DNA of 64,000 nucleotides. Origin: Minisyncoccota bacterium. GTDB lineage: Bacteria; Patescibacteriota; Minisyncoccia; Phycocordibacterales; UBA9973. The DNA is taken from assembly GCA_028718635.1 (NCBI GenBank), contig JAQULK010000001.1:543834-607833 (forward strand). Direction: 5' to 3'. The translations under genes and the position numbers were made by a program. The notes beneath the pieces are model-generated. The model was not told where the DNA came from. It saw only the letters and a program-made list of their open reading frames with translations, and ran no database searches. Positions 24,715 to 55,792 of this stretch are shown piece after piece (positions within the stretch are counted from its first letter, which is position 1; each line of letters opens with the position of its first letter).

Positions 24715-24734
24715 TGCTTTAGTTAAGTAAAGTA
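24715..24734. promoter_or_regulatory. HisR-box-like palindrome between paralogs 3 and 2
   Basis: Minus strand TACTTTACTTAACTAAAGCA, 18/20 identical to 31241-31260. Confidence 0.6.
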
Positions 24735-31240: not shown

Positions 31241-31278
31241 TACTTTACTTGACTAAAGTAATTTACTTTGATAAAGTA
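31241..31278 (+). promoter_or_regulatory. promoter with tandem HisR-type operators
   Basis: TACTTTA-N6-TAAAGTA (31241-31260) and TAATTTA-N6-TAAAGTA (31259-31278) overlapping -35 TTGACT, 17 nt, -10 TAAAGT. Confidence 0.75.
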
Positions 31279-31283
31279 GCGGT

Positions 31284-31688
31284 ATGAGTAAAGGAATGAA
31301 TAAAAATACATCAATAAATACGGTTAAGCTGATTCAAGGAATTGGCCCCAAGATGAATTGGGACGATAAGAAAAACAAACAATTCATTGAGGCAATCTTG
31401 AGTTTAAAAAATACCGATGAAGCCGAACGTTTTTTACGTGACTTAATGACTGAAAGTGAAATAAAAGAATTTGCGAATCGCCTCGAGGCTGCTTCCCTTC
31501 TATCTAAAGACGTACAATACAATGCGATTATTGAAAGCACGGGTCTTTCTTCTACAACGATCGCCAGAATAGCAAAATGGCTCAAAGGTTCGCTTGGTGG
31601 ATATCGCTTAATTTTATCCCGCTTATCTAATGTTTCTTTGCACCATCACAACTCTTCCAAACTTAGGAAAGGGTTGTTTTTGAGTTGA
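31284..31688 (+). CDS. TrpR-like YerC/YecD (HisR) repressor with a C-terminal His-His-His leader-like tail
   Basis: EAILSLK..DEAERFLRDLMTESE, TGLSSTTIARIAKWL...GGY; tail SLHHHNSSKLRKGLFLS. Confidence 0.9.
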   Translation: MSKGMNKNTSINTVKLIQGIGPKMNWDDKKNKQFIEAILSLKNTDEAERFLRDLMTESEIKEFANRLEAASLLSKDVQYNAIIESTGLSSTTIARIAKWLKGSLGGYRLILSRLSNVSLHHHNSSKLRKGLFLS

Positions 31689-31752
31689 TAATTATTTCAA
31701 AGTATTTTTCGAAACTAACCCCTTCCTAAGTTTAGGAAGGGGTTTTGCATTT
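31641..31752 (+). promoter_or_regulatory. His-responsive transcription attenuator
   Basis: CAC CAT CAC, then 1:2 hairpin 31649-31676, 2:3 pairing 31659-31675 with 31717-31733 (16/17), 3:4 terminator AACCCCTTCCTAA/TTAGGAAGGGGTT plus TT. Confidence 0.8.
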
Positions 31753-31788
31753 AGCAAAACTAATTTTTGTTCTTTGAAAGGAAAAAGT

Positions 31789-31941
31789 ATGAGAAAAAAG
31801 GAAAAAGTAAAGAAAGAAAGTAAAAAAGAAAAAGAAAGGAAGGCAGCAGAGAAAAGAAAGTCAGAGGACAAAGAACTCGACAGATTGGTTGATAGTTGGG
31901 GCAAGCGTTTCTTTGGTCTTGGAGGGGCATTAATAGATTAG
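31789..31941 (+). CDS. small Lys/Glu-rich hypothetical protein (50 aa; not in the ORF track)
   Basis: SD AAAGGA; MRKKEKVKKESKKEKERKAAEKRKSEDKELDRLVDSWGKRFFGLGGALID. Confidence 0.5.
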   Translation: MRKKEKVKKESKKEKERKAAEKRKSEDKELDRLVDSWGKRFFGLGGALID

Positions 31942-31957
31942 ATAAGGAGGTTAAAAA

Positions 31958-32167
31958 ATGATAGGAAAGAAAAAAATGTACAAGAAAGAAGAATTTCACA
32001 CTTGTTACAGCACAAGTGAAGAAATGGAAAAGGCACTTAAACCTTTTCGCGATGACGGCTGTTCTGACATACGTTTTATGTCCGAGTTAATTGAAATCGA
32101 AAAAAAACGGAAGCAACGATTTTGCAAACTATGCCTAAGACAAAAGTATAAAAACAAGTTAGATTAA
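31958..32167 (+). CDS. small hypothetical protein (69 aa)
   Basis: Perfect SD AAGGAGG; followed by a terminator. Confidence 0.55.
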   Translation: MIGKKKMYKKEEFHTCYSTSEEMEKALKPFRDDGCSDIRFMSELIEIEKKRKQRFCKLCLRQKYKNKLD

Positions 32168-32191
32168 TATCGCGTCTAATCAACGCAAGAA

Positions 32192-32222
32192 ATGGGGCGA
32201 ATCGTGAAACGATTCGCCCCAT
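32192..32222. terminator. hairpin terminator between convergent units
   Basis: ATGGGGCGAATCGT-GAA-ACGATTCGCCCCAT. Confidence 0.8.
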
Positions 32223-32263
32223 AATTATTTTTATTCAATTATTTTTTTTATTTTGCTTAAAAA

Positions 32264-32869
32264 TTATTTTAATTTCAAAGTGTGTCCCATTTTGTCGCGT
32301 TTGGTGAGAAGGTAGGATTTGTTATATTTATTTGGTTTTATCTCAATCGGAATATTTTCCACAATTGTCAAGCCATTTTTTATCAGACTTTCTGATTTTT
32401 TAGGATTGTTGGTCAATAACCTTATTTTTGAAATGCCTAAATCGCGCAGAATTTCCGCGCCCACCCTGTAATCCCGTTCATCTATTTCAAAACCAAGCTT
32501 TATGTTGGCTTCGGCAGTGTCTAAGCCATTTTCTTGAAGTTTGTAAGCTCTTAATTTATTCATCAAACCGATTCCCCGGCCTTCTTGGTTCAAGTAAACA
32601 AGCGCGCCCTTGCCTTTCTTTTCAATCATCTTGATTGCTTTTTCGAGCTGATGTCCGCAATCGCATCTAAGAGAGCCGAAAATGTCTCCGGTCATGCAAG
32701 AAGAATGAATCCTCACTAAAACAGTTTCATCTTTCTTCCATTTTCCTTTTACTAAGGCTAAATGTTCTCCTCTTCCCCTGGCTAAACTATAAGCGTATAA
32801 ACTAAAATTCCCATATTTGGTGGGCAATTTTACTTCTATTTCTCTTTTTACAAAATTTTTATTTTTCAT
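32264..32869 (-). CDS. ribA: GTP cyclohydrolase II
   Basis: [37 protein letters not shown]. Confidence 0.96.
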
Positions 32870-33312
32870 TTAAGTAAAGCAAGTTCGAGCGCAGCTAGGG
32901 CAGCTTCTCCTCCGACATGGATTCTTTGCCTTGCTTGCTTGATATTATTTACCGTCAGCACCCCAAAACCGACGGGAATATTGTCTTCAATCATAACTTT
33001 CAGAACCCCTTCTTGCGCCATTTTGCAGACGTAATCAAAATGCGGAGTATCACCTTTTATAACACAACCTAAAGCAACAAGGAAATCATATTTTTTCGAT
33101 TTTGCCATTTTATGCAAAGCAAAAGGAATTTCTACAGACCCAGCGACAGACATTTTCTCAATATTTTTATCAGCAATATTGCAATTCTTCAGCATCTGAA
33201 GCGCGTTTTGCAAAAGAGGCTCCGTGATCTCGGAATTCCATCTAGCAACCACGATGCCGACTTTTAGGTTTTTTCCGTTTAAATATTTATATTTTTTATT
33301 TTTTATATGCAT
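32866..33312 (-). CDS. ribH: 6,7-dimethyl-8-ribityllumazine synthase
   Basis: [34 protein letters not shown]; start trimmed to MHIK at 33312. Confidence 0.95.
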
Positions 33313-33389
33313 CCCGTACGAAATTATATTAACTTTGTAAATTGACCCATCCACAACACGAAATTTTATTAAAAAGATTTCGTACGGGA
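33313..33389 (-). mobile_element. start-codon-targeted inverted-repeat element E5 (ATGCA duplicated)
   Basis: Minus strand ATGCA-TCCCGTACGAAAT...ATTTCGTACGGG-ATGCA (ribH start); supplies the last codons and stop of ribE. Confidence 0.75.
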
Positions 33390-33950
33390 TGCATATTTAG
33401 CCAGTATATCAAATTCCAAATTAACTTCATCTTCTTCTTTTTTAAATTTTAAATTTGTGTGTTTTAGGGTATACGGTAATATTTTTACAACAAATAAATC
33501 TTTGAGAACCTCGGCGACAGTCAGGCTTATGCCTTCTATCGCGATCGATCCCTTATAAACCAAAAATTTTTTGAATTTTTTATCAGAAACCTTTATATAA
33601 AATTCTTTAGAATTTCCTTCTTTTTTTATGCTGATAATTCTGCCTTTTCCATCAATATGCCCGAGCACTAGGTGCCCGTCGAGCCTGTCGGACAAACGCA
33701 TTGATTGCTCAAGATTCACAATGTCGCCTTTCTTCAAGAGTCCTAAATTTGTAAGTTTTAGTGTTTCTGGCATATATTCAAATGAAATATTTTTGTTATT
33801 TTTTTTAACAGTGGAACAAACGCCATTGATAGAAATACTTTCTCCTAATTTTATTTTTCCTAAATTATTTAAAATATCAACAAAAAGACCGCCTTGCGCA
33901 GATTTTACTCTTTTCACTTTTGAAGTTTTTTTTATTATGCCTGTGAACAT
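33369..33950 (-). CDS. ribE: riboflavin synthase
   Basis: MFTGII, SISINGVCST, GHLVLGHIDG, KGSIAIEGISLT, VNLEFD. Confidence 0.95.
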   Translation of the reverse strand: MFTGIIKKTSKVKRVKSAQGGLFVDILNNLGKIKLGESISINGVCSTVKKNNKNISFEYMPETLKLTNLGLLKKGDIVNLEQSMRLSDRLDGHLVLGHIDGKGRIISIKKEGNSKEFYIKVSDKKFKKFLVYKGSIAIEGISLTVAEVLKDLFVVKILPYTLKHTNLKFKKEEDEVNLEFDILAKYASRTKSF

Positions 33951-34309
33951 ATATTAAGATCTTTCTCTATTTGTATAATCAATTCTTTTTCTGTTTTAAA
34001 TTTTTTAAATTTTCTGATAAATTTATTCATTTCAAGAATGACTTTCTTGTCATAAGCATTTCCATTATAGCCGAGCAAATGCGCTTCTATTTTCGGCAAA
34101 CCTTTTTTATCTAATGGACCGATCACAATTCCCGCTTGATATGTCAAACATCGGGTGTTTGACATTAAACTAACTTTTCCAGCGTACACTCCAAAAACCG
34201 GTTTTTTCTCCAGCCTCATAAAATTTTTCCTGTCTAAGTTGATGGTCGGAAAACCGATCTTCCTGCCGTACTGATCCCCTTTTATTACTTTACCAGAGAT
34301 TGTGTACAT
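33935..34309 (-). CDS. monofunctional riboflavin kinase domain
   Basis: GKVIKGDQYGRKIGFPTIN, GVYAG, IEAHLL, FIRKFKKF; no FAD synthetase domain. Confidence 0.88.
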   Translation of the reverse strand: MYTISGKVIKGDQYGRKIGFPTINLDRKNFMRLEKKPVFGVYAGKVSLMSNTRCLTYQAGIVIGPLDKKGLPKIEAHLLGYNGNAYDKKVILEMNKFIRKFKKFKTEKELIIQIEKDLNICSQA

Positions 34310-34313
34310 TTAA

Positions 34314-35663
34314 TTAAAATCCTTCTTCACTTAACCTTTCATCAATGCGATTCATGTCTCGCGGAAACATAGACGCCTCGCGAATATTTTTTAGTCCTAA
34401 AAGTTGCATGGTTATACGTTCTGCACCAAAAGAGAATCCTCCTTCTGGTGGAACTCCGTATTTAAAAGCTTCAAGAAACATTCTAATTTTATTTGGATCC
34501 ATTTCCCAAAGTTTTACATGCTCCTTTAACTGTTCGTAATTATTTATTCTTCGTCCACCAGAGAGCCATTCAACTCCGCGACAAATTAGGTCCATGCCCT
34601 CGTTGTATTCTGGTTCAGCTGGGTTCGGATAAACATAAAAAGGCTTCTTGCGAGTAGGATAGCCATAAATAAAAACAAAATCAGAGCCTGTTTCTTCTTT
34701 AATTATTTCAGAAATTTCTCTTTCATCTTGCGGATTGGTGTCTTTTTCACCTCGCACATCCCGACCAAATTTTTCAAAAATTTTCTGTTGGACTTCTCTC
34801 AAAGAAAGAGATGGGGTTTTGTCTAGCATAACTGGGAGCGTAACGTTTAATAATTTTAATTGTTCACTATTTCTAACTTCAACTTGTTTTAAAATATATT
34901 TAAAAGTTTCTTCCGCCATATCGCGTACATCTGTCCATGATTCTATAAAACCCATTTCAGCATCTAGACAAACAATCTCTGTCAAATGTCTTGTAGTCGA
35001 TGAAGGTTCAGCTCTAAAAACTTTATTCACAGTAAAACATCTTTCAAAAGCTGACATCACAATTTGTTTATAAAGTTGTGGAGACTGAGATAAATAAGCT
35101 TTCTTTCCAAAATAATCAAACTGAAAGACCTCTGCCCCACCCTCAGCAGCGGCAGGAGTTATAGACGGTGCTTGAAATTCAAAAAACATATTTTTTTTCA
35201 TAAATTCTCTGAAAGAATCAATGATCGTTTCTTGAATTTTAAAAATTGCTTGGACTTTTGGCTGCCTTAATACTAATGCCCTGTTGTCCAGCTCTGTTGT
35301 AAGTTCTAAATTATATCCGTCAAGTGACATATCAAAAGGAAGTGCTTCAGCTTTTGCTAATATTTCTATACCTGTGACCTCTAGTTCCACATCGCCATTT
35401 AATACTCCCGCTTTTATATTTTTTTCCGGACGCTTGTTTACCATTCCGGTAATTTTCAAAACCCATTCGGGGCGAATTGTTTTTGCCACCTCTATCGCTT
35501 CTACATGATTCGGCAAAGTGACGCACTGCACTCGCCCAGTCATATCCCGCATATCAAAAAAAACCATTTTACCTTGATCACGTCGCACATCCACCCATCC
35601 GGCGATGACAACCTCTTTGCCAATATGATCTTTTAAATCTTTAATATAAATTCGTTCTTTCAT
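34314..35663 (-). CDS. aspS: aspartyl-tRNA synthetase, short non-discriminating/archaeal type
   Basis: OB fold, EGGAEVF, LSQSPQLYKQ, FRAEPS, GVPPEGGFSFGAER, FPRD. Confidence 0.93.
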   Translation of the reverse strand: MKERIYIKDLKDHIGKEVVIAGWVDVRRDQGKMVFFDMRDMTGRVQCVTLPNHVEAIEVAKTIRPEWVLKITGMVNKRPEKNIKAGVLNGDVELEVTGIEILAKAEALPFDMSLDGYNLELTTELDNRALVLRQPKVQAIFKIQETIIDSFREFMKKNMFFEFQAPSITPAAAEGGAEVFQFDYFGKKAYLSQSPQLYKQIVMSAFERCFTVNKVFRAEPSSTTRHLTEIVCLDAEMGFIESWTDVRDMAEETFKYILKQVEVRNSEQLKLLNVTLPVMLDKTPSLSLREVQQKIFEKFGRDVRGEKDTNPQDEREISEIIKEETGSDFVFIYGYPTRKKPFYVYPNPAEPEYNEGMDLICRGVEWLSGGRRINNYEQLKEHVKLWEMDPNKIRMFLEAFKYGVPPEGGFSFGAERITMQLLGLKNIREASMFPRDMNRIDERLSEEGF

Positions 35664-35687
35664 AAAATTATTCTAGCATAACAAATC

Positions 35688-35803
35688 AAAATAAAATAGA
35701 AAGTAACATTTTAAGGGGTTTTGAGCGCGTCGGCGCGAAAACTTCAGGATTTTTTCAGTAGAAAAAATCCGTACCGGCAAAATGTTACTTTCTATTTTAT
35801 TTT
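35688..35803 (-). repeat. structured repeat family B, copy 2 (3' of prs)
   Basis: Perfect 25-bp arms around the family B core, on the minus strand. Confidence 0.85.
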
Positions 35804-36816
35804 CCATTATGCCAAAGCTGTGTGACGGAATCACCATTATGTAAATTGTCTATGACCTGCGCAATTAATTTAGCGGTAGAGATTATTTCCAATTTTTTAA
35901 TTTTTGTTCGAGCTTCATCTGAAAGGCATGTATCCGTAAACCAAATACCGGAGAACGGCGCATTATTTAATTTTTCTATTGCCTCTCCCGAAAGCACAGC
36001 ATGAGTAGCTGTAAAATACACATCCTCGGCGCCATTTTCTTTTAAAGTCTTGAGAGCTTTGATAGCTGTACCGCAAGTGTCCGCCATGTCATCCGGCATG
36101 ATTATATTGAAACCCCTAGGATCGCCGATGACCTCCATGATTTCATTGTGGTTAGCTTTTTTAGGATCACGGAATTTATTTATAATTACGATGTTGCCTG
36201 GAATGCCAAGCTGTTGCGCGAGTAGCCTGCAGGAAGGCGCGGCTCCCAGATCGGGCGCTACAATTTTAAATTTCTTTAAATTGAATTTTTTAGAACGAAT
36301 ATGATTCAAGATAAGCGAGTCTGTATTCACATCTACTACAGGAATAGTGAGAGGATGAGCATTGTAGCTCGATGGATTGTGTAATTTTAAAACTACTATT
36401 CTATGCGCCCCTGCCATCTGAAGCCGCATAGGAATTTTTTGAGAAAGTACCGGCTCTCGGTGATTGGAAGATTTATCTTGCCTGGAATATGGCAAGCACG
36501 GCATAACCACTGTCACTCGAAAAGGCTCGCCTTGCTTTAGAGCGAGGATCAAAGATTCGCATTCATCTAAATCATAAGAAAGTTTTTCTTTATCGCCAAA
36601 GCGAGGCTGAGAAATAATGTAGACATCTCTGTCTCGGACTGATTCTGTGTGATGCACTAAAAATTCTCCATTGCTGAATATTTTATAATAAAAAGGATCT
36701 AGTTTAGTTTTTAATAATTTGGCTACTTTAAGAGAGAGATTTTGATGAGAACCGCTGGCATTTCCGTATAACTTTAAGGGATAAGGGTTTAGTTTGGGAT
36801 ATTTTTGGTTTTTCAT
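35797..36816 (-). CDS. prs: ribose-phosphate pyrophosphokinase
   Basis: FSNGE, ESVRDRDV, PYSRQD, VAPDLG, DDMADTCGT, ATHAVLSG. Confidence 0.95.
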   Translation of the reverse strand: MKNQKYPKLNPYPLKLYGNASGSHQNLSLKVAKLLKTKLDPFYYKIFSNGEFLVHHTESVRDRDVYIISQPRFGDKEKLSYDLDECESLILALKQGEPFRVTVVMPCLPYSRQDKSSNHREPVLSQKIPMRLQMAGAHRIVVLKLHNPSSYNAHPLTIPVVDVNTDSLILNHIRSKKFNLKKFKIVAPDLGAAPSCRLLAQQLGIPGNIVIINKFRDPKKANHNEIMEVIGDPRGFNIIMPDDMADTCGTAIKALKTLKENGAEDVYFTATHAVLSGEAIEKLNNAPFSGIWFTDTCLSDEARTKIKKLEIISTAKLIAQVIDNLHNGDSVTQLWHNGK

Positions 36817-36856
36817 TTGGTTAATTAATTACAAAACATAATAAAATAACTTTCTT

Positions 36857-37921
36857 TTAATGCGCATTAACCAAATAATTCCTGGCTGAAAAAAGATATT
36901 GCTCTGTGAATATTTCTTTCATTGGGACTATAGAATTTTCTTCGTAAAAAGCCAAGATTGATTTTTTGTAAATATTTTCGTCAATGCTCCTGTATGAGAG
37001 TGGAGCGCAACCTTTTGAAAGAAGAACGGCATTGCAAAGCAAGCGCGCAGTGCGTTTATTGCCGTCTTCAAATGGTTGAATATATGAGAGACCCGCCAAA
37101 AGAGTAAGAGCGCCGCTGTAAACATCTTTCATTTTATTAACTAATTCACAAAGAGATTCCAGCGCTTCCTTAATCTGATATTTATTATCGAGAGGCTTAT
37201 ATTTTGTGCCGACAATACCGACAAGACCGTTTCTTATACCGCGAGCTATTCCTAATTTTTCAATAATTATTTCATGCACTTTTTCTATAAAAACAACATT
37301 CACTCCTTTTTTTTTGAAACCCTCTATATTTTCTAAAATGAAAGAAAAAGCTCTTTTGTGATTTAAGATCATTATCGCCTCATCCTGTGAATGACCCTTG
37401 GCTGGTATGCCTTCGCGAATCAAGCGTTCGGTATCCAATAAAGTATAGGTATTGCCTTCAATTTTTGAAGACTTCCAGGATAATTCAATTATGAAACGCT
37501 CCAATTCTTTTACATGGATTGTCGGTGTTAATTTTTTTATATTTTTTTTATATTGAGCTGTGGCAGAATCAAGGATATTTTTTTCGTCATCCGAAAATAT
37601 ATCAAGTGGAAATTCTTTGAATAAGCGAAAATTAAAAAAGCCGTTTCCTATTCTTTTGTCCGGTTCTATCGTATCATACACCGAGAGGTCTACTGGAGAA
37701 AATAAAATTCCTTTAATTGTTTTTTGGTATACAGTGGAACGTCCCTTGCCCTTTCTTTTAAGATATTCAGCTTTGCTCAGATAATCCAAATCCCGCTTTA
37801 TTGTTATTAGAGAAACTTTCTGTTTTTTATCCATTAAACCCAAAACGTCAGAAGAAGAAAACTCTTCATTTAGTTTTATATTTTTTAGAATATCCAGTTG
37901 TCTATTATTCAAATAATCCAT
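36857..37921 (-). CDS. Fic family protein with N-terminal winged HTH
   Basis: SSKIEGN, QPFEDGNKRTAR. Confidence 0.9.
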   Translation of the reverse strand: MDYLNNRQLDILKNIKLNEEFSSSDVLGLMDKKQKVSLITIKRDLDYLSKAEYLKRKGKGRSTVYQKTIKGILFSPVDLSVYDTIEPDKRIGNGFFNFRLFKEFPLDIFSDDEKNILDSATAQYKKNIKKLTPTIHVKELERFIIELSWKSSKIEGNTYTLLDTERLIREGIPAKGHSQDEAIMILNHKRAFSFILENIEGFKKKGVNVVFIEKVHEIIIEKLGIARGIRNGLVGIVGTKYKPLDNKYQIKEALESLCELVNKMKDVYSGALTLLAGLSYIQPFEDGNKRTARLLCNAVLLSKGCAPLSYRSIDENIYKKSILAFYEENSIVPMKEIFTEQYLFSARNYLVNAH

Positions 37922-37955
37922 AATTTTTTAAAAAATTTATCGTATCATTTTGACT

Positions 37956-37986
37956 CCCTAATCATATCATTTTGATACGATTAGGG
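37956..37986. promoter_or_regulatory. palindrome upstream of the Fic gene (candidate autoregulatory operator)
   Basis: CCCTAATCATATCA-TTT-TGATACGATTAGGG, with a partial second copy at 37939-37953. Confidence 0.55.
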
Positions 37987-38038
37987 CAATACCCAACATT
38001 ATTTGACTTTAAAAATTATTCGTGTAATATACATATTA

Positions 38039-38116
38039 ATGAAATCAAATATGAGTTTTAACAATTATTTCTTCTTTTTTAGCTTTTGGAGCCAAGGTTC
38101 CAGAGTTCATTTCTGA
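38039..38116 (+). CDS. Phe-rich attenuator leader peptide
   Basis: MKSNMSFNNYFFFFSFWSQGSRVHF, downstream of TTGACT-16-TAATAT. Confidence 0.85.
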   Translation: MKSNMSFNNYFFFFSFWSQGSRVHF

Positions 38117-38153
38117 TATTGTTAAAATCATTCTAAAACAAACATAACAATAC

Positions 38154-38192
38154 AAGAAACGAGCCCTGGAACGGGGCTCGTTTTTCTTTTTT
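38154..38192 (+). terminator. attenuator terminator upstream of pheA
   Basis: AAACGAGCCC-TGGAACG-GGGCTCGTTT plus T-run; antiterminator partner GTTCCAGAGTTC at 38097-38108. Confidence 0.85.
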
Positions 38193-38280
38193 GTTTAAGA
38201 GAAAAAAGTAGCACATCGTCAGAAGAATAAAAACGGTTGCCCTTAGGTGACTGAAAAAACTAGAAAGGAAGGAAAAAGTC

Positions 38281-39156
38281 ATGGAAAGAATTACTTATCT
38301 TGGCCCCCAAGGAGCAACATTCTCAGAGCTAGCTTACATAGAGCTGGCCAGGTTGTTTGGAGCTCCTAGTCTTAATGTGGGAGAAATAGTTCTGGCTGGA
38401 AAAAACCAAGACGTTTTGCCTTTGGTTTTCAACCATGGTGGCTATGGAGCTATAGCGATGGAAACAGATGCTGAGGGTAGAGTTGACGGACCTGTCAACA
38501 CTTTCATTCAGCTTCTTAGAAATTGCGAAACTTCAGAGGATTGCCCGATAACAGTTATTGGGGCAATCAAAATGCCTATTTCTTTTGCCCTTATGGTTAG
38601 ACCAGGAGTGCAAAAGAAAGACATTAGGACTGTTGTCGCACACCCAAAAGCATTAGGTGCATGCAGAAACATGGTCAACTGTTTAGTCAGTGACCAAGAA
38701 AAGATCATCGAGTCGGACAGTAATGGCTTAGCCGCCGAAGATGTTGCAACTAAACAAAAATTTTCTCAGGCTGCAGCACTTGGCCCAAGAGTCGCCGCAG
38801 ACAGGTATGGACTTCAGATTTTAGAAGAAGCTTGTGAAGATAGTCCTGCGACTACCACTTTTTTTCTTTTAGGACCTAAATCTCGCCCACAAGTGATGCA
38901 GGAGGTAAATAGGTCTTTATTAGTATTTCGGGTTAAACACGAACCTGGGTCACTTGTAAAGACACTTCTACCTTTCTCGGACGCAGGATTAAACTTGCGT
39001 CAAATTCATTCACTTTATACTGGCAAAGGTCAATATGACTTCGCAGTCGAGATTGAATGTGGAAAGGACCAAGAAGAGGACTTAGTACGTGCTATGTATG
39101 GATCAATGAGACACATGATGTGTTATGTTCTTTTCGGCCCTTTCCCTGTTGTTTAA
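38281..39156 (+). CDS. pheA: prephenate dehydratase-like protein with ACT domain
   Basis: YLGPQGATFSE, HPKALGAC, HEPGSL, NLRQIHS, GPFP; the usual TRF motif reads TTF. Confidence 0.85.
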   Translation: MERITYLGPQGATFSELAYIELARLFGAPSLNVGEIVLAGKNQDVLPLVFNHGGYGAIAMETDAEGRVDGPVNTFIQLLRNCETSEDCPITVIGAIKMPISFALMVRPGVQKKDIRTVVAHPKALGACRNMVNCLVSDQEKIIESDSNGLAAEDVATKQKFSQAAALGPRVAADRYGLQILEEACEDSPATTTFFLLGPKSRPQVMQEVNRSLLVFRVKHEPGSLVKTLLPFSDAGLNLRQIHSLYTGKGQYDFAVEIECGKDQEEDLVRAMYGSMRHMMCYVLFGPFPVV

Positions 39157-39259
39157 GTTCAATGTTTAAAAAAAAACAGCTACCTGTGGTGGCTGTAAAA
39201 ACAACACTAATTAAAGGAAGGAAGTAAAAAGAAATGAAAAAGAACCGTATTTTTCTCCA

Positions 39260-39400
39260 ATGCCTACGTCAGTACCGACAGTACCGTTTGAGCAGGTAAG
39301 TCTGCTTATACGACATATGGAAGCCCAAAAGGGCAAAAATGAAGAAGGAATGGAAAAAATAAAGAAAGAAGCTGAAGAAGCTGGCTTCAAAATAGAATAA
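39260..39400 (+). CDS. small hypothetical protein (46 aa; not in the ORF track)
   Basis: MPTSVPTVPFEQVSLLIRHMEAQKGKNEEGMEKIKKEAEEAGFKIE, ending just before a terminator; start uncertain. Confidence 0.35.
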   Translation: MPTSVPTVPFEQVSLLIRHMEAQKGKNEEGMEKIKKEAEEAGFKIE

Positions 39401-39421
39401 AGGTATCGTTTTTATCAACTT

Positions 39422-39458
39422 ATGCCGCCCTCACTATCTCAGGGCGGCATTTCTTTTT
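39422..39458 (+). terminator. intrinsic terminator of the pheA unit
   Basis: ATGCCGCCCT...AGGGCGGCAT followed by TTCTTTTT. Confidence 0.85.
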
Positions 39459-39492
39459 ATATTTTTTGAATTAATAAAATTTATTAAAAATG

Positions 39493-39531
39493 AAAAACCA
39501 GTAACACTTTTTTATTTCGGTGTTACTGGTT
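39493..39531 (-). terminator. terminator of the Trp-controlled unit
   Basis: AACCAGTAACAC...GTGTTACTGGTT followed by TTT on the minus strand. Confidence 0.7.
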
Positions 39532-39581
39532 GATTTTGAGAAGTTCGGCCTTCTCTTGCCTTGCTTGGAAAAGTGCCAAGC

Positions 39582-39764
39582 TCACCTAGAAAGTCCAGAG
39601 TCATTAATCTCTGGATCATTATCCAAAGATCCACATATCGCTAAAAGGATTCTGCATCCTCGACAATACCCACGCCAAACGCTGGGCATGTCCTCAATAA
39701 AGACAACCTTACCCTTGCATCTTGGGCAAGATTTTAATGGAAGTTGAATTCTTTCTTCTGACAC
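39582..39764 (-). CDS. 60-aa zinc-ribbon protein
   Basis: SD AAGGAGGT, GTG start, CPRC...CRGC. Confidence 0.65.
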   Translation of the reverse strand: MSEERIQLPLKSCPRCKGKVVFIEDMPSVWRGYCRGCRILLAICGSLDNDPEINDSGLSR

Positions 39765-39783
39765 AACGACCTCCTTTAAAGAA

Positions 39784-39810
39784 CAAAAATCAGCGCTTTG
39801 TTTTGCGCTG
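39784..39810 (-). terminator. Trp attenuator terminator
   Basis: CAGCGC-AAAACAAA-GCGCTG-ATTTTTG; antiterminator TTTTGCGCT lies in the leader. Confidence 0.75.
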
Positions 39811-39849
39811 TTTAATTGATTGCTTATAGATTAGGTTTATAAAAAGAAA

Positions 39850-39930
39850 TCAACAGAATAGCGCAAAAAGTTTTGTCTTTGTGCTCCACCAAGAATTCAT
39901 TAAAATATTTATTTCAAAATAATTTTTCAT
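39850..39930 (-). CDS. Trp attenuator leader peptide
   Basis: MKNYFEINILMNSWWSTKTKLFALFC with tandem TGG TGG. Confidence 0.8.
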   Translation of the reverse strand: MKNYFEINILMNSWWSTKTKLFALFC

Positions 39931-39993
39931 ATTGTTTATGTTTATTTATGCATTTATACTTAGATTCCTTATATTATTTACATATATATCTCT

Positions 39994-40039
39994 GTATCCA
40001 TGTACTAGTACATAGTAGTAGAATAAAAAAATAAAGCAA
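39994..40039 (-). promoter_or_regulatory. promoter with TrpR-type operator
   Basis: -35 TTGCTT, 16 nt, -10 TACTAT, overlapping palindrome ATGTACTAGTACAT (40000-40013); GTATC-N8-AGTAC resembles the TrpR GTACT-N8-AGTAC consensus. Confidence 0.65.
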
Positions 40040-40115
40040 GATATGCTCTTGTGGATAACCCCGCACTATAGCAAAGCTCAGTACAGGGCAAACTTTTTCA
40101 TTCATTTATTAGCCA

Positions 40116-40409
40116 CTACTTGCTTAACTTTTTTAGCATTAAATTAAAACCCCCATTCTTATTGCGAAGCTCGCGAGATCCTCGAGTGACAGTACTTATT
40201 CCAAGTCCTAAATCCCCTGCTACAGACCTATGAGTCTCTCCTTTGTTTAATTTTTTAACTATTTGCCACCTTAAGGCCATATCCTCAAGCTCAGAAGGTG
40301 TTGTAATATCTACTAAAAATTCTGTAAAAAGATTTTTATCTTTTCCAGCTTTTACTAAGATTTCTACAAGTTCTTTTTTATATTCTTTTAGTTTTTCTCT
40401 TTTGTTCAT
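40116..40409 (-). CDS. trpR: Trp repressor
   Basis: TPSE...LRWQIVKKL..GETHRSVAGDLGLGISTVTRGSREL; directly downstream of trpS. Confidence 0.92.
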   Translation of the reverse strand: MNKREKLKEYKKELVEILVKAGKDKNLFTEFLVDITTPSELEDMALRWQIVKKLNKGETHRSVAGDLGLGISTVTRGSRELRNKNGGFNLMLKKLSK

Positions 40410-40476
40410 CCCGGTACTAAAATTTTAAATATTAATCCTTATCTTTATTTCCCGTAATCAAAAATTTAGTACGGGA
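40409..40476. repeat. TCCC...GGGA inverted-repeat element, copy E2
   Basis: Fills the whole gap from the trpS stop to the trpR start; ends match E1. Confidence 0.8.
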
Positions 40477-41436
40477 CTAGTACACATTCACCCCGATCTT
40501 TTCTCGCACCTCGGCCATTTTTTTTGAAGCGACAATTTTTGCTTTTTCACCACCATTTTTAAGAATTTCTAGGGCTTTCGGAATATCTTTGGCAAATTCT
40601 TTTCTTTTTTCTCGAAGCGGGGCGATGAATTTTTCGATATCCTCTATCAGCATTTCTTTGAGTTCTTTATATTTGCCGGATTTTTCCGCATAAATCTTTT
40701 TCAATTCTTCTTCAGAACGGAAAAGTTTATGGATGGCGTAAACATTCTGAGGAATTCCCCCGCTGGAATCTGTCACAATACTCATCACGCATTTTTTTAT
40801 TTCTTCATATTCGGCAAAAAGTGGAATGGTGTTGCCATAACTCTTGCTCATTTTTCTCCCATCTGTACCGGGCACTATGGCGACATCTTTCAGAATCATT
40901 GACTCTGGCAATTTAAAGATTTGACCTCCTTCTCCGTAAACATTATTAAATTTTTCTGCTATATCTCGAGCTATTTCCACATGCTGTTTTTGATCAGCGC
41001 CTACTGGCACAAGGTCGGGACCATACATCAAAATATCCGCCGCCATCAAAACTGGATAATTGAAAGTGCCGACATCTATTTCTTTATTCTTCGCCTCGGC
41101 GTCTTTAAAGGCGTGCGCTCGCATCAGATACGGCATCGTGATGATGGTGTCAAAAATCCAAGTAAGCTCAGTATGTTCAGAAATATCGCTTTGTTTGAAA
41201 AATGTTATCTTTTGAGGATCGAGACCAATTGCTAAATAATCAAGCAAAATACTTGTGATGTTTTCCTTCATTTCACTGCGATTCCTAAGGGAATGCAACG
41301 CATGATAATCAGCTATAAAAACATAGCCATCATGCTCATTTTGGAGGTCGACGAATTGCTTCATCGCCCCAAAATAATTGCCGATATGAGGTTTTCCAGA
41401 GGGCTGAACGCCTGATAAGAATATCTTTTTTGACAT
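40477..41436 (-). CDS. trpS: tryptophanyl-tRNA synthetase
   Basis: SGVQPSG, HIGNYFG, YPVLMAADIL, VPVGADQ, KMSKS. Confidence 0.98.
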   Translation of the reverse strand: MSKKIFLSGVQPSGKPHIGNYFGAMKQFVDLQNEHDGYVFIADYHALHSLRNRSEMKENITSILLDYLAIGLDPQKITFFKQSDISEHTELTWIFDTIITMPYLMRAHAFKDAEAKNKEIDVGTFNYPVLMAADILMYGPDLVPVGADQKQHVEIARDIAEKFNNVYGEGGQIFKLPESMILKDVAIVPGTDGRKMSKSYGNTIPLFAEYEEIKKCVMSIVTDSSGGIPQNVYAIHKLFRSEEELKKIYAEKSGKYKELKEMLIEDIEKFIAPLREKRKEFAKDIPKALEILKNGGEKAKIVASKKMAEVREKIGVNVY

Positions 41437-50240: not shown

Positions 50241-51755
50241 TTATATCATAGGCTCAGCCTCTTGTGAAGTTTTAGTTTCTATTTTTTGATTATTTTCCTT
50301 AATCTCTGATTCTTCAGATATTTCTTCTCCCCTTTCTTTTGCTTTTCTTTTAGCTTTTCCTTCAATAATAGCCTTTTCTTCCGCACTTCGAATGATGGTA
50401 GCTTCTTCTTCAGCGATAAGTTTTGCCGCATCGTCTTTTGAAATTGAGTACTTCCTACGCGAGGCATCAACAATTTCTTTTCTATAAGACGGATGTGTGG
50501 GCGCTAAAACCCGCAAGGTCTCAGCGGAAAATGGATCATAAGATTCTCCATCGATGGTCATCTTGATATAAATTTCTCCTACTGCGAGATTGATCATATC
50601 TTTCACATCAAAGAGTGGCGCAAATTCTGGTTTCATTTTGACGGCATCTTCACCACCAACACGAAAAGTAATGATACTACCGCAATTTCCGAGCACTGCC
50701 TGATGAACTTTCGTAATAATTTGGCCCACATACTGGTGGGCGATAGTTAAGTTTAATCCGTACTTTCTAGCCTCGGATAATATATTTTCAAAAGTTTGGG
50801 TGACGACATTTTGGAACTCATCTACGTATAAATAAAAATCTGTGCGGTCTTTTTCCGGAATAGCCGCACGTTCCATGCCGGCTTGTTTTATTTTTGTCAA
50901 AAACATTGAACCCAAAAAGGAAGAATTTTCTTCTCCAAGTCGGCCCTTGGAAAGGTTGATGAAAATTATTTTTCCTTCATTCATCAGCTTACTGATATCA
51001 ATCTTATTCTGTTTCTGACCGAAAATATTTCGAAGTAATGGATCGGAAAGAAATTGGCCGAGCTTGTTTACGAGCGGGATGATAGCGTCCGTATCGAATT
51101 TCTCCGACCAGTCGGCAAATTCTATAGCGAAGAATCTTTTGACCATATCGTCGGTAATATATTCCACCACTTTTTGCCTGTAATTCCTGTCAGTCAACAT
51201 TGAGATCATCCCACGCATAGTAGCATGCGGATAATCAAGCAAGGCCAAACAAGTAAAACGAAAAACGTGCTCCAGACGAGGAGTCCAGTTGGCTCCGAAT
51301 TGCTTTTGAAATACTTCGATCAATCCTTGGGTCAATTGGAATTTAAACATCGGATCGACATTTGCGAGCGGATTGAAAGAAGCTGGAAAATCAATATCTG
51401 GCGGATCTATAATGCAGACATCTTCTATACGTTCTTTTGGTATATAGTCCAGCATCGCGTCAATCACATCGCCGTGCGGATCGATCAGGCACAAGCCATG
51501 ACCATAAGTCACATCTTGCCTGAGCATGAGTTCTAGAAGTTTCGTTTTACCAACACCAGACTTTCCGATGATATAAAGATGTCTTCGTCTATCTATTCTT
51601 TTTATTCCAAAAATAAATTTTTTCTCTTCTAAAGAAGCAACGTAATTTGTCCGTCCGATAAAAGAAACTTCAGCCGGATCTACTTTGCCGAACACAGGCA
51701 GTTCTGGTGGTGGTGGTCCGTATTTTATTATTTGCACTCGATTCGGCTTGGGCAT
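50241..51755 (-). CDS. VirD4/TraG-like (FtsK-HerA superfamily) ATPase
   Basis: GKSGVGKT, IDPHGD, YVDEFQ, LSEARKY. Confidence 0.88.
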   Translation of the reverse strand: MPKPNRVQIIKYGPPPPELPVFGKVDPAEVSFIGRTNYVASLEEKKFIFGIKRIDRRRHLYIIGKSGVGKTKLLELMLRQDVTYGHGLCLIDPHGDVIDAMLDYIPKERIEDVCIIDPPDIDFPASFNPLANVDPMFKFQLTQGLIEVFQKQFGANWTPRLEHVFRFTCLALLDYPHATMRGMISMLTDRNYRQKVVEYITDDMVKRFFAIEFADWSEKFDTDAIIPLVNKLGQFLSDPLLRNIFGQKQNKIDISKLMNEGKIIFINLSKGRLGEENSSFLGSMFLTKIKQAGMERAAIPEKDRTDFYLYVDEFQNVVTQTFENILSEARKYGLNLTIAHQYVGQIITKVHQAVLGNCGSIITFRVGGEDAVKMKPEFAPLFDVKDMINLAVGEIYIKMTIDGESYDPFSAETLRVLAPTHPSYRKEIVDASRRKYSISKDDAAKLIAEEEATIIRSAEEKAIIEGKAKRKAKERGEEISEESEIKENNQKIETKTSQEAEPMI

Positions 51756-53647: not shown

Positions 53648-55792
53648 CTATTCTAAAATTTTTCTTAAAACATCTTCTGGTACTTCCCTCGGCTGTAGCC
53701 CTCCTACGGGCGAAGCTGGTGTTTTTGGCTTTTGGGGAGTTTCTTCCCCTCCTTGTGAAGGAGGGGTGCCTGCCTGCCGGTCAGGCAGGGCTTCAGCCGG
53801 GGTGGTGATTTTTTTCGTAATCAAATCTTTTAATTTATTCATATTTTCCGGAGTAGCTGCGCGGTCAACACCTATTGGACTGACAGGCTTTTTTACTTCC
53901 CTCGGCTGTAGCCCGCCTATGGGCGAAGCTTGCATTTTATTTTTTAGAGAATCAAGTGAAATGGGAGTAGGTGTGGAAACAGGCGTTGGTGTGGATTTAG
54001 TTTCTTCTACTACTACTTTATTTAAAACTTCTCTTAATGCTGAATTGTCCCCATTTACTCGTTTCACAGGAGCTCCACTAATGCGAGCTGGATAAACGGG
54101 TTTGACTTTAACTGGAACTTTTTTAGTAAAAACTTTTTTTATAGACTTAAATACACTAGGCTTGCTTGCTAAAGCAATATCTTTTTCTCCTCTTTCTTGA
54201 TATCTATGTTCTTCTTCAACTCCTCCATTCTTTTGTTTAAATTCTATACCTAAATCAGCCAATGGTTTATAAAATTTAGATTCATCATACTTAATTTGAT
54301 CTTGCCCCCTTTTTTCCACCTTAACTTCTCCAGATTTTATTTTTGCTATACATTCCTTACAATAAACTGCTCGGCCTGGTTCAGGCTTGAAAGGTACCGT
54401 CTTTTCTAACTTACAAAGAGAACAAATTACGGGAAACTTTTCCAAATTTCCATTTCCGTTAGTGTCAGGATAATTGCCCAAGGACATTCCGCTCCAGTTA
54501 TTGATTTCTCTTTCCACTGCCTCGCGAGGCCTACAATAAAGATCCCGGGATGATTTTATTACCTCTTCTTCTATTTTTTTATTACCCGACTTTACTATCG
54601 GAGGCAAAGTCCTAGCGGAAAATGGACGGGAGGTCACGCCATCGATCATCAACTTCAGATAAATTTTATAGTTTGGCAAGTTTACAATATCAGAAGGAGT
54701 GAATTCTGGATCAAATTCTTTTTCTAAAAAGTCTGCATCGTCCGAGCCGACCCTAAAAACTATCATTGTGCCGACGTTACCAAAAACAGCATCACGCACC
54801 GCAGAACTCTTATCAGAAATAAGTTGCGCAGTGTACTGGTGCGCCACCGTCAAATTCAGCCTGTATTTTCTAGCTTCAGACAAAATACCCGCAAAAGCAT
54901 CCGTCACAAAGTTTTGGAATTCGTCGACATAAAGGTAAAAGTCTTTGCGGTATTCCTCAGGGATGCGCACTCGTTCCATCGCGGCTAGTTGAATCTTGGT
55001 AATGATCATTCCTCCTAATAGCCCGGAATTGTCTTCACCGATTCGTCCCTTGGAAACATTCACGAGAAAAATCTTCCCGTCATTCATAATGTCGAAAATG
55101 TTGATCGTACTTACAGATTGGCCGACGACATTGCGGATAATCGAGGTCGAAAGAAATTGCCCGACTTTGTTTTGAATCGGCGCGATGGCCTCATTTCTGA
55201 ATTTATCCTGCCAAGCTTCATACTCATGGACCCAGAAGGCTTTTATAACCGGATCTTTTAGATTAGAAATTATTTTCTGGCGGTAATCTTTGTCTACAAG
55301 CATTCGGGGAATTCCAAGCAGGGTCGTTCCCGGAGTATCGAGCAATGCCAAAATACAATTATTTAAAATATATTCCATTCGGGCACTCCAAGCGTTCGCC
55401 CAGATTTTCGTAAAAATACCCATGAGTCCGGACGCTACCAGATGCTTATATTGCGGATCAATTAATTCCAAAACATTAAAACCGATATGATAATCCGTGT
55501 CTGCCGGATTAAAATAAACTACATCTTTCATTCGCTCCGGCGGAATAGCAGAAAGGACGCCTTCGACGAGTTCTCCGTGCGGATCGACTACGCAGACTCC
55601 TTCGCCGTTCTGAATATTCTGAACTATCATATTAAACATCAAGGCAGATTTACCGGTACCGGACTTTCCGAGAATATAAACATGCTGACGCCTGTCCTTG
55701 CGTTTGATGCCAAAGAGTTGATTTTTGTCGCGAAAAGATGTGAGCCCAAGATAAGTAATATCTCTATTTTTTGGTATTTCTGGCAGTTCCAT
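53648..55792 (-). CDS. VirD4/TraG-like ATPase with CxxC-x17-CxxC domain and repeat-laden tail
   Basis: GKSGTGKS, VDPHGE, YVDEFQ, LSEARKY, CSLC-x17-CKEC. Confidence 0.9.
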   Translation of the reverse strand: MELPEIPKNRDITYLGLTSFRDKNQLFGIKRKDRRQHVYILGKSGTGKSALMFNMIVQNIQNGEGVCVVDPHGELVEGVLSAIPPERMKDVVYFNPADTDYHIGFNVLELIDPQYKHLVASGLMGIFTKIWANAWSARMEYILNNCILALLDTPGTTLLGIPRMLVDKDYRQKIISNLKDPVIKAFWVHEYEAWQDKFRNEAIAPIQNKVGQFLSTSIIRNVVGQSVSTINIFDIMNDGKIFLVNVSKGRIGEDNSGLLGGMIITKIQLAAMERVRIPEEYRKDFYLYVDEFQNFVTDAFAGILSEARKYRLNLTVAHQYTAQLISDKSSAVRDAVFGNVGTMIVFRVGSDDADFLEKEFDPEFTPSDIVNLPNYKIYLKLMIDGVTSRPFSARTLPPIVKSGNKKIEEEVIKSSRDLYCRPREAVEREINNWSGMSLGNYPDTNGNGNLEKFPVICSLCKLEKTVPFKPEPGRAVYCKECIAKIKSGEVKVEKRGQDQIKYDESKFYKPLADLGIEFKQKNGGVEEEHRYQERGEKDIALASKPSVFKSIKKVFTKKVPVKVKPVYPARISGAPVKRVNGDNSALREVLNKVVVEETKSTPTPVSTPTPISLDSLKNKMQASPIGGLQPREVKKPVSPIGVDRAATPENMNKLKDLITKKITTPAEALPDRQAGTPPSQGGEETPQKPKTPASPVGGLQPREVPEDVLRKILE

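Follow-up and report, generated by a model that had tools for sequence, protein, structure and literature searches.

The trpR/trpO and trpL system, pheL-pheA and hisL of Escherichia coli are the textbook attenuators, and phage morons and auxiliary metabolic genes are familiar as self-contained cassettes that are led by a Shine-Dalgarno (SD) site, carry terminators and include orphan enzymes such as DsrC. Here, we describe a 9-kb locus in a 64,000-nucleotide stretch of DNA (termed the window) from a Nomurabacteria-type genome of the candidate phyla radiation (CPR), in which three candidate attenuators, for histidine (His), phenylalanine (Phe) and tryptophan (Trp), stand before accessory genes. 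Like the E. coli attenuators, they have a run of cognate codons, mutually exclusive antiterminator and terminator hairpins and, for Trp, an operator over the promoter; unlike them, their leaders have no SD site and begin at the transcription start or close to it, and most of the controlled genes are not biosynthetic. A separate short leader peptide of the classical kind is present in the Phe and Trp units, whereas the His unit uses a 134-aa repressor gene as its leader. In contrast to phage morons, the cassettes are chromosomal and lie behind the cell's own amino-acid sensors, and no phage match was found for the cargo family. We think it probable, with real room for doubt, that conserved switches responding to His, Trp and Phe shortage have been re-used to turn on variable accessory genes, whose targets are probably the host or metabolites obtained from it. 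Switching is predicted from anatomy, conservation and covariation; regulation in vivo, NusB binding and the purpose of the cargo are inferred.

The closest described repressor is HisR (YerC in B. subtilis), whose regulon is the subject of Ashniev et al. 2022 (PMC9413887). The window protein is likewise a TrpR-family protein near the structures 3G1C and 3FRW, with a 20-bp TTTA-N6-TAAA palindrome and a site before its own gene; it differs in having a His-codon tail and an antiterminator arm inside the repressor gene. The accessible part of that paper shows His-stimulated DNA binding for R. gnavus HisR. By its account, lineages that have no HisR are the only ones in which His attenuators were looked for and detected; its main text, as far as accessible, nowhere uses the word Parcubacteria. 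The nearest precedent of the His fusion is the WWW motif of Chlamydia YtgR, which also places sensing codons within a repressor gene; in the accessible text on that system (PMC7755916), stalling cuts the gene's own transcript and acts in trans, whereas the switch predicted for the window unit is a hairpin that would control the genes downstream of it in cis. The boxA elements of rRNA leaders and of E. coli suhB, as described in the available part of PMC5725501, resemble those of the window in lying near GYTCTTTAANA, in standing a few bases from an SD site and in that NusB is encoded; here, however, they follow attenuator terminators, no Rho was found, the NusB carries a fused NUDIX domain, and binding is predicted. 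Finally, the 16S 3′ end lacks CCTCCT, as in the Parcubacteria without an anti-SD of Tsurumaki et al. 2022 (PMC9297842), in the accessible text of which no class of SD-led accessory genes is reported. Literature searches, with most subscription papers outside their coverage, returned no paper on a HisR-leader fusion, on CPR attenuators or on SD-led genes in anti-SD-less CPR bacteria.

The source genome (G000; 761 kb in four contigs, rated 98.7% complete) contains the window at C1:543834-607833. The closest relatives of its HisR and TrpR are mostly Candidatus Nomurabacteria or Paceibacterota, and the source is therefore a CPR (Parcubacteria) organism. In what follows, G numbers denote genomes and L numbers loci; some of the 81 HisR loci repeat genomes that also have a G number. 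The three units, each composed of promoter, leader, attenuator, cargo and terminator, were located where the original prediction placed them: His on the plus strand (31241-32222), Phe on the plus strand (38003-39450) and Trp on the minus strand (40409-39496). At gathering score, Rfam finds a single tRNA in the window and no match to His_leader, Trp_leader or Phe_leader, and a promoter scan gives site counts equal to those in shuffled sequences. The cognate codon runs and mutually exclusive folds in all three units are those of ribosome-mediated attenuators, with translation and read-through predicted. The His unit consists of the following features, where ORF denotes an open reading frame:

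31241-31278, plus strand: tandem pair of 20-bp operators of the HisR type, with core TTTA-N6-TAAAG, that overlaps the −35 (31249) and −10 (31272-31277) elements of the hisR promoter
31284-31688, plus strand: hisR (YerC/YecD, TrpR family), 134 aa, its C-terminal tail also the attenuator leader
31641-31649, plus strand: three His control codons (HHH), inside the last 16 codons of hisR
31659-31676, plus strand: antiterminator 5′ arm within the hisR reading frame, from constrained folds
31717-31744, plus strand: attenuator terminator hairpin, the 5′ side of which is the antiterminator 3′ arm
31769-31782, plus strand: boxA-like GTTCTTTGAAA running into SD-like AAAGGA, before His cargo ORF 1
31789-31941, plus strand: His cargo ORF 1, 50 aa, Lys/Glu-rich, without a Pfam match
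31958-32167, plus strand: His cargo ORF 2, 69 aa, with a strong SD site, a diverged member of a small Cys/His family found behind His attenuators
32192-32222, plus strand: intrinsic terminator ending the His unit, from a terminator scan

By domain model and operator, the product of hisR is a HisR/YerC-type repressor, with His-stimulated binding predicted. It matches PF01371 (E 1e-18) and TIGR02531 (67.3 bits, above the cut-off of 42.2), its best PDB matches are 3G1C and 3FRW, and the operator core agrees with the HisR consensus cacTTTAnnnnnnTAAAgtg published in PMC9413887 (from its accessible part). Among 81 HisR orthologues, comprising the best 80 of 446 loci and that of the window, 72 have at least two HisR-type sites upstream. 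The original prediction had a short His leader peptide, but the His codons lie in the tail of hisR itself. Across the 81 orthologues, His makes up 216 of 2666 residues in the tails and one of 7277 in the bodies (the genome average is 1.6%); the tails hold two to five His in 72 cases, one in six and none in three. Tail and hairpins occur together: nine of ten close orthologues (60 relatives sampled) have both and G015 has neither, while five tail-less orthologues (L072, L077, L108, L114 and L137) also lack arm and terminator. In constrained folds, placing the ribosome on the His codons lets the antiterminator form (−33.1 kcal/mol with a downstream hairpin), and placing it at the hisR stop codon lets the terminator form. 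Covariation was tested for the His unit alone, over the 59 distinct loci that the search patterns could parse. Cognate antiterminator duplexes average −20.7 kcal/mol against −15.2 kcal/mol for swapped arms, the cognate pair is better than its own swapped median in 53/59 loci, and 0/5000 permutations are as low; compensatory changes are visible in the arms of L061, L083 and L111. On these sequence comparisons, the arms covary and the His attenuator is maintained, not decaying. Because it is conserved and covarying, the proposal that such units are degenerating relics left after operon loss fails as a general reading.

The steps that follow are inferred from this anatomy and covariation. His-bound HisR would repress its own promoter via the two operators. 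On a transcript that escapes, with His ample, the ribosome would reach the hisR stop codon and cover the arm in the gene, so that the terminator forms; with His short, it would stall at the His codons, freeing the arm and allowing read-through into the cargo. A single gene would thus be both repressor and leader peptide. The Trp unit would follow E. coli logic, with a TrpR operator and a WW leader, and the Phe unit would be a leader-only attenuator upstream of a divergent dehydratase. After read-through, the boxA copy, some 10 nt upstream of the first codon of the cargo, would be a loading site for NusB-S10. Further HisR-type operators lie at window 24715-24734, directly followed by the start of a 587-aa, Cys-rich paralogue, and at G000:C1:507422.

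The Trp unit runs in the opposite direction, downstream of trpS (40477-41436):

40116-40409, minus strand: trpR, matching PF01371
39999-40039, minus strand: TrpR-type palindromic operator (39999-40014) overlapping the promoter −10, with a −35 at 40034-40039 read by eye
39850-39930, minus strand: trpL, 26 aa, with tandem Trp codons (WW) at 39886-39891
39791-39868, minus strand: antiterminator arm (39860-39868) and weak terminator (39791-39810), from constrained folds
39770-39784, minus strand: boxA-like GTTCTTTAAAG overlapping the SD site AAAGGAGG, before the Trp cargo ORF
39582-39764, minus strand: Trp cargo ORF, 60 aa, CxxC...CxxC zinc-ribbon-like, with a GTG start and a strong SD site
39496-39531, minus strand: hairpin with a U-tract ending the Trp unit, read from the sequence

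The nearest model to the repressor is TIGR01321 (TrpR), which it matches with 48.9 bits, under the equivalog cut-off of 67.25; context and operator box still mark it as TrpR-like. The operator is the sole such site in the genome. In relatives, 72 of 80 TrpR loci were usable: the operator box is present in 53, a leader could be parsed in 45 (41 with WW), and a boxA lies within 260 nt in 46, a count made without a shuffle control, in which a few matches are spurious. A trp gene follows within about 2.5 kb in 13 of 56 Trp loci. The corresponding slot of L290 holds an orthologue of the window Trp ORF, 64% identical and with all four Cys kept; the pair gives a ratio of nonsynonymous to synonymous divergence (dN/dS) of 0.34 (Fisher p 0.009) at a synonymous divergence (dS) of 0.72, and AAAGGAGGTC is identical in the two. 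This orthologue was recovered by synteny, a word-based protein search having found no homologue of the Trp ORF. Separately, a third TrpR-like family ends in PPRAGRGRWKFLY and has a palindromic repeat on both flanks (L012, L016, L022, L025 and L027).

The Phe unit lies between the other two:

38003-38030, plus strand: promoter of the sigma-70 type, 8 nt upstream of the pheL start, 9/12 to consensus and no commoner than in shuffles
38039-38116, plus strand: Phe leader peptide (pheL), 25 aa, with four consecutive Phe codons (FFFF) at 38069-38080
38097-38185, plus strand: antiterminator arm (38097-38105) and terminator (38155-38185), alternative folds of −31.0 and −22.9 kcal/mol
38281-39156, plus strand: SD-led, divergent prephenate dehydratase (PDT) homologue with PDT and ACT domains, 291 aa, member of a CPR family
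39234-39400, plus strand: second Phe-unit ORF, short, with 21 codons from the SD-led start and 46 in an overlapping frame
39422-39450, plus strand: hairpin with a U-tract ending the Phe unit, read from the sequence and not in the terminator scan output

The first cargo product is a prephenate-dehydratase homologue (PF00800, E 4e-25; ACT domain PF01842 below cut-off) with putative enzyme activity. Its family counts 185 homologues, and all of those with a named organism are from CPR bacteria. A conserved Phe-rich leader with its arm was found by pattern in 12 of 19 genome loci of the family, and by eye in two more; the window pheL is of a different sequence type. Small ORFs of no recognized kind had been proposed as cargo of all three units, which does not hold for Phe.

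The His and Trp units share a motif, ATTTTTGTTCTTT(G)AAAGGA, at 31763-31782 (plus strand) and 39772-39790 (minus strand), and TTGTTCTTTG?AAAGGA has just these two matches in the 761-kb genome. The shared presence of the motif in the original prediction is thus borne out; its placement right after the terminator is looser, in that the Trp copy overlaps the terminator U-tract and a second small hairpin precedes the His copy. The window Phe unit has no boxA within one mismatch. Among the forms scanned for was the boxA form GTTCTTTGAAA. Of 62 His junctions that were parsed, 45 have a site with at most two mismatches to any of three forms, one of them close to the consensus in the accessible text of PMC5725501, against 2.1 expected from shuffles; 19 of the 81 His loci had been dropped as short, tail-less or unparsed. 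The 3′ end of the boxA is typically 7-13 nt upstream of the cargo start codon, and the element is mostly absent from junctions into hisS operons or straight into SLOG genes. The resemblance to boxA that had been noted fits the lineage itself: a YYTTGAHAA core, chosen after the leaders were viewed, recurs in the 16S leaders of 11 out of 12 relatives, compared with 4.7% of shuffled sequences, the 16S leader of the source genome not having been located in the assembly. By sequence, then, the shared motif is the lineage's boxA, and NusB-S10 may load on the cargo copies; the NusB of the source genome is fused to a NUDIX domain (C1:331141-332094, L220) and adjoins an RNase III-like gene. Boxes of similar sequence also lie just upstream of the tRNA-Asn and tRNA-Gln genes (G000:C1:381367 and C1:540908), and a conserved TTCAATTTGAAA directly after the 16S tail (G000:C1:670775; L169-L198) resembles boxA, as if a spacer boxA abutted the shortened tail.

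No pathway that would match the sensors was found in this genome. Enzymes of his, trp and shikimate synthesis were not found in the source genome, so that their reported absence from the window extends genome-wide by tblastn and Pfam. No HisG, HisI/E, HisD, HisB, TrpE, TrpD, TrpC, TrpB or Aro protein was found by tblastn with the proteins of relatives, the only matches being HisS, a weak glutamine-amidotransferase match and a class I aminotransferase; Pfam models of TrpA, IGPS and chorismate mutase have no match, with 13-14 of 14 controls positive. A PF00977 match was rejected as a his gene, as it sits in a 508-aa ORF, presumably IMP dehydrogenase, next to an ORF presumably of GMP-synthase type.

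In relatives, the slot behind the attenuators is variable. Some have hisS-hisG-hisIE-hisD in the His slot and trpE, trpB and trpD in the Trp slot, and the amino-acid specificity of the switches is therefore fixed. A his gene lies downstream in 15 of 78 His-tail loci, not including that of the source genome; where at least 3 kb of downstream sequence is available (65 loci), hisD is present in six, 53 have no his gene, and the remainder have a lone hisG or hisI. Other cargo, from 88 proteins scanned, includes SLOG, HAD, methyltransferase and radical SAM proteins and many ORFs of no recognized kind, among which small Cys/His families recur. The window's small ORFs are not decayed his or trp fragments: no Pfam or tblastn similarity was found. 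ORF 2 of the His unit matches the cargo of L094 (E 1e-6), and its family has 77 library matches at 50% clustering. A metagenome scan with this family gave three loci, one a false match and two behind a hisR attenuator, of which one is near-identical to L086; no usable ESM Atlas match was found for ORF 2, and its AlphaFold model has three helices with low scores (predicted local distance difference test, pLDDT, 67; predicted template-modelling score, pTM, 0.31). The nearest relative shares the Trp ORF (L290) but not the His cargo (L059). Since L094 holds both of the cargo families that the window and L059 have singly, part of the apparent exchange looks like differential loss. In contigs from four DNA runs, alternative cargo at the junctions was not found.

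Other observations concern this slot. In L064 (6510-6566), L070 (6510-6566), L127, L135 and L102, the slot opens with a conserved peptide of 17-33 aa (..SLGGxGPH), which precedes an ORF of 260-300 aa of no recognized kind; one pair gives a dN/dS of 0.13, and the C-terminal end of the window His ORF 1, FGLGGA, is similar. In L097 (5404-6957) and L104 (7370-8923), the cargo of the His attenuator is followed downstream by a gene for a HutH-like aromatic-amino-acid lyase. After the SLOG gene of L109, L121, L125 and L126 there is a second mini-ORF of 22-24 aa with HHTNLFLEE, a possible second His leader.

The original prediction held that attenuators are re-used as sensors gating exchangeable cassettes, and it stands in part. 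The pathways were not found, the attenuator covaries, cargo differs between species and the tested pairs are under purifying selection; on the other side, the Phe unit leads to an enzyme homologue, two of the units also come under DNA-binding repressors, some relatives keep his or trp genes or whole operons in the slot, and part of the variation looks like differential loss. Further points weigh against the re-use of these switches for accessory genes. The His loci are kin, so that p values are overstated. The ratios of 0.08-0.39 that argue for purifying selection come from six estimable cargo pairs (function not known; besides the window Trp ORF) that were hand-picked, and four further pairs were saturated and gave no ratio. 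Across 212 genomes of the genus (including the unpublished G147), the presence of hisD in seven and of a HisR-type operator 15-mer in 94 favours re-use, but the operator count takes in sites at other genes and its reversed control matches about 26/212 genomes. Lone leftover his and trp genes in many relatives are equally expected from stepwise operon loss. In the window itself, the dehydratase scores 126.6 bits, under the prephenate dehydratase equivalog cut-off of 219, and reads TTF where solved enzymes have TRF (T192 and F194 are invariant in 36 homologues). No homologue of His ORF 1 was found in Pfam or in the fetched relative loci, and ORF 2 is aligned without either His of the family's DHxHCW motif, which may reflect local decay of the window His ORFs. 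Nor was a homologue found for the second Phe ORF, which may be a decayed, apparently frame-split gene; its 21-codon SD-led frame is unchanged in a contig from another study. Finally, Rho was not found in the source genome, which makes a classical boxA role uncertain.

An alternative is that the units are relics that serve as a landing pad, the switches persisting by inertia or for HisR and TrpR autoregulation while foreign SD-led genes drift through a quiet slot and are not usefully regulated. The cargo is indeed very heterogeneous, the window has two orphan ORFs and a frame-split one, 8 of 17 SD-led genes of the source genome fall at or below the 6th percentile of codon adaptation, and a terminator is needed to end hisR in any case. 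However, the terminator covaries with the arm and the His tail, neither of which autoregulation needs; cargo families recur specifically behind His attenuators and show purifying selection; the phage and viral collections searched hold no match for the cargo family; and the Trp ORF and its SD site are common to another species at the dS given above. We regard the landing pad as unlikely.

The SD sites of the cargo are themselves unusual in this genome. Its long genes show no SD enrichment (GGAG in 19 of 561 against a 4.1% background) and have an A-rich start region, and CCTCC is absent from the 16S tail in all 30 of the tails fetched, its own included. Of 35 cargo-bearing genomes, 23 have tails without CCTCC, ten gave no tail, and two have canonical tails, one being an Azambacteria genome and the other probably mis-binned. 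Such loss of the anti-SD is described for a Parcubacteria subgroup in the accessible text of PMC9297842. Of 45 cargo starts with boxA, 28 have an SD-like site in front, against 2/17 non-boxA starts and 37/389 flanking genes; pairing reaches −5 kcal/mol or lower in 28/51 His cargo and 10/18 PDT starts, against 4/65 hisR and 59/450 core genes, and 23/36 Trp cargo starts pass the same value. The spacing from SD to start in His and PDT cargo is typical, and sensor frames and cargo thus differ in start grammar. Downstream cargo genes that lack boxA also have SD sites (22 hand-picked genes). Across the source genome, AAAGGAG-N5-11-ATG occurs 37 times against five for the reversed pattern, in a class that includes a DsrC homologue, PfkB-like and SPFH genes. 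Above cut-off, dsrC is represented by four genes in 3 of 212 genomes, all with SD sites. The SD-led DsrC homologue of the source genome (G000:C1:453841-454140, L215) is without the C-terminal cysteines, which are present in a DsrC of G200 that is flanked by the same genes; further copies are found in G199 and G200, and all have strong SD sites. The same cargo families occur with and without SD, and SD status is clustered on a quick HisR tree with four starred branches, used for this purpose alone (11 changes against 21 shuffled). SD accessibility does not differ from shuffles (0.35 against 0.40, p 0.21; 25 junctions, one mis-parsed). CsrA, a possible reader of the GGA motif, was not found. A separate anti-SD RNA was rejected, the four ATCACCTCC matches being three in long ORFs and one antisense to 23S; the genomes checked have at most one 16S tail match each.

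One explanation for these starts is export for translation in the host: the cell's own SD-independent ribosomes would sense the shortage, and boxA-tagged, SD-led cargo mRNAs would be kept from them and read by host ribosomes. We find this improbable, and hold the same of its corollary that exported mRNA effectors (lone HisG, HisI, TrpE, dehydratase, DsrC and small zinc proteins) push host metabolism. We know of no precedent for mRNA effector export, which counts against it. The contrast between 16S tails without CCTCC (30/30 in relatives, 23/25 in cargo-bearing genomes with a tail found) and SD enrichment on His and PDT cargo, the SD sites on downstream genes lacking boxA, the orphan enzymes and DsrC homologues in the class and the apparent lack of CsrA would all fit. 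So would the accessible accounts of boxA repressing suhB translation in E. coli (PMC5725501) and of relaxase-less type IV secretion systems widespread in Patescibacteria (PMC12102498), and two coupling-protein-like ATPases lie in the window. Yet 17/45 boxA junctions lack an SD site, families occur with and without one, and the accessibility test is null; E. coli ribosomes, moreover, initiate correctly without SD pairing (PMC7043885, in its accessible part), so the cell's own ribosomes may read the cargo. Very improbable is a cell-internal salvage role, in which cargo would act in the CPR cell on host intermediates (e.g. prephenate to phenylpyruvate), the small proteins being starvation-stress factors and boxA with SD a local translational switch: hisS, SLOG-family, HAD and methyltransferase genes in relatives' slots, single late-pathway genes (trpB, PDT) and boxA-SD pairing at a probability above 0.5 in 8/25 junctions suit it, but lone hisG, hisI or trpE would yield early intermediates without a downstream enzyme, mean SD accessibility is that of shuffles, and the SD sites on second genes and on dsrC are left unexplained.

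Between the units, the minus strand carries ribA, ribH, ribE, a riboflavin kinase gene, aspS, prs and a Fic gene. The block trpS-trpR ... aspS-rib ... hisR is also present in relatives, and the clustering of the sensors within 9 kb is therefore inherited; in G013, where gene names were read from sequence, the block retains trpE and an aro operon. Palindromic repeat elements stand at gene starts at window 33309-33394 (ribH) and 40430-40490 (trpR/trpS junction), and high contig depth suggests that they are mobile repeats. Elsewhere in the window, two TraD/VirD4-like ATPases (50241-51755 and 53648-55792) lie amid dnaJ/dnaK and Cys-rich paralogues. ARAGORN finds 41 tRNAs in the whole genome, and no transfer-messenger RNA was found by it.

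On the preferred reading, that shortage switches have been re-used for variable accessory genes, the individual parts would work like those of known systems, and a repressor gene whose last codons are an attenuator leader would place two textbook layers of control in one reading frame. What the locus adds is a link: a boxA-SD class directly behind amino-acid sensors, with genes under selection. The SD sites in a lineage without an anti-SD, with boxA adjacent, pose a testable question on translation start and on the cargo of relaxase-less CPR secretion. As the sensors are far more widespread than the pathways, the slot behind them may be taken as a list of candidate host-interaction genes.

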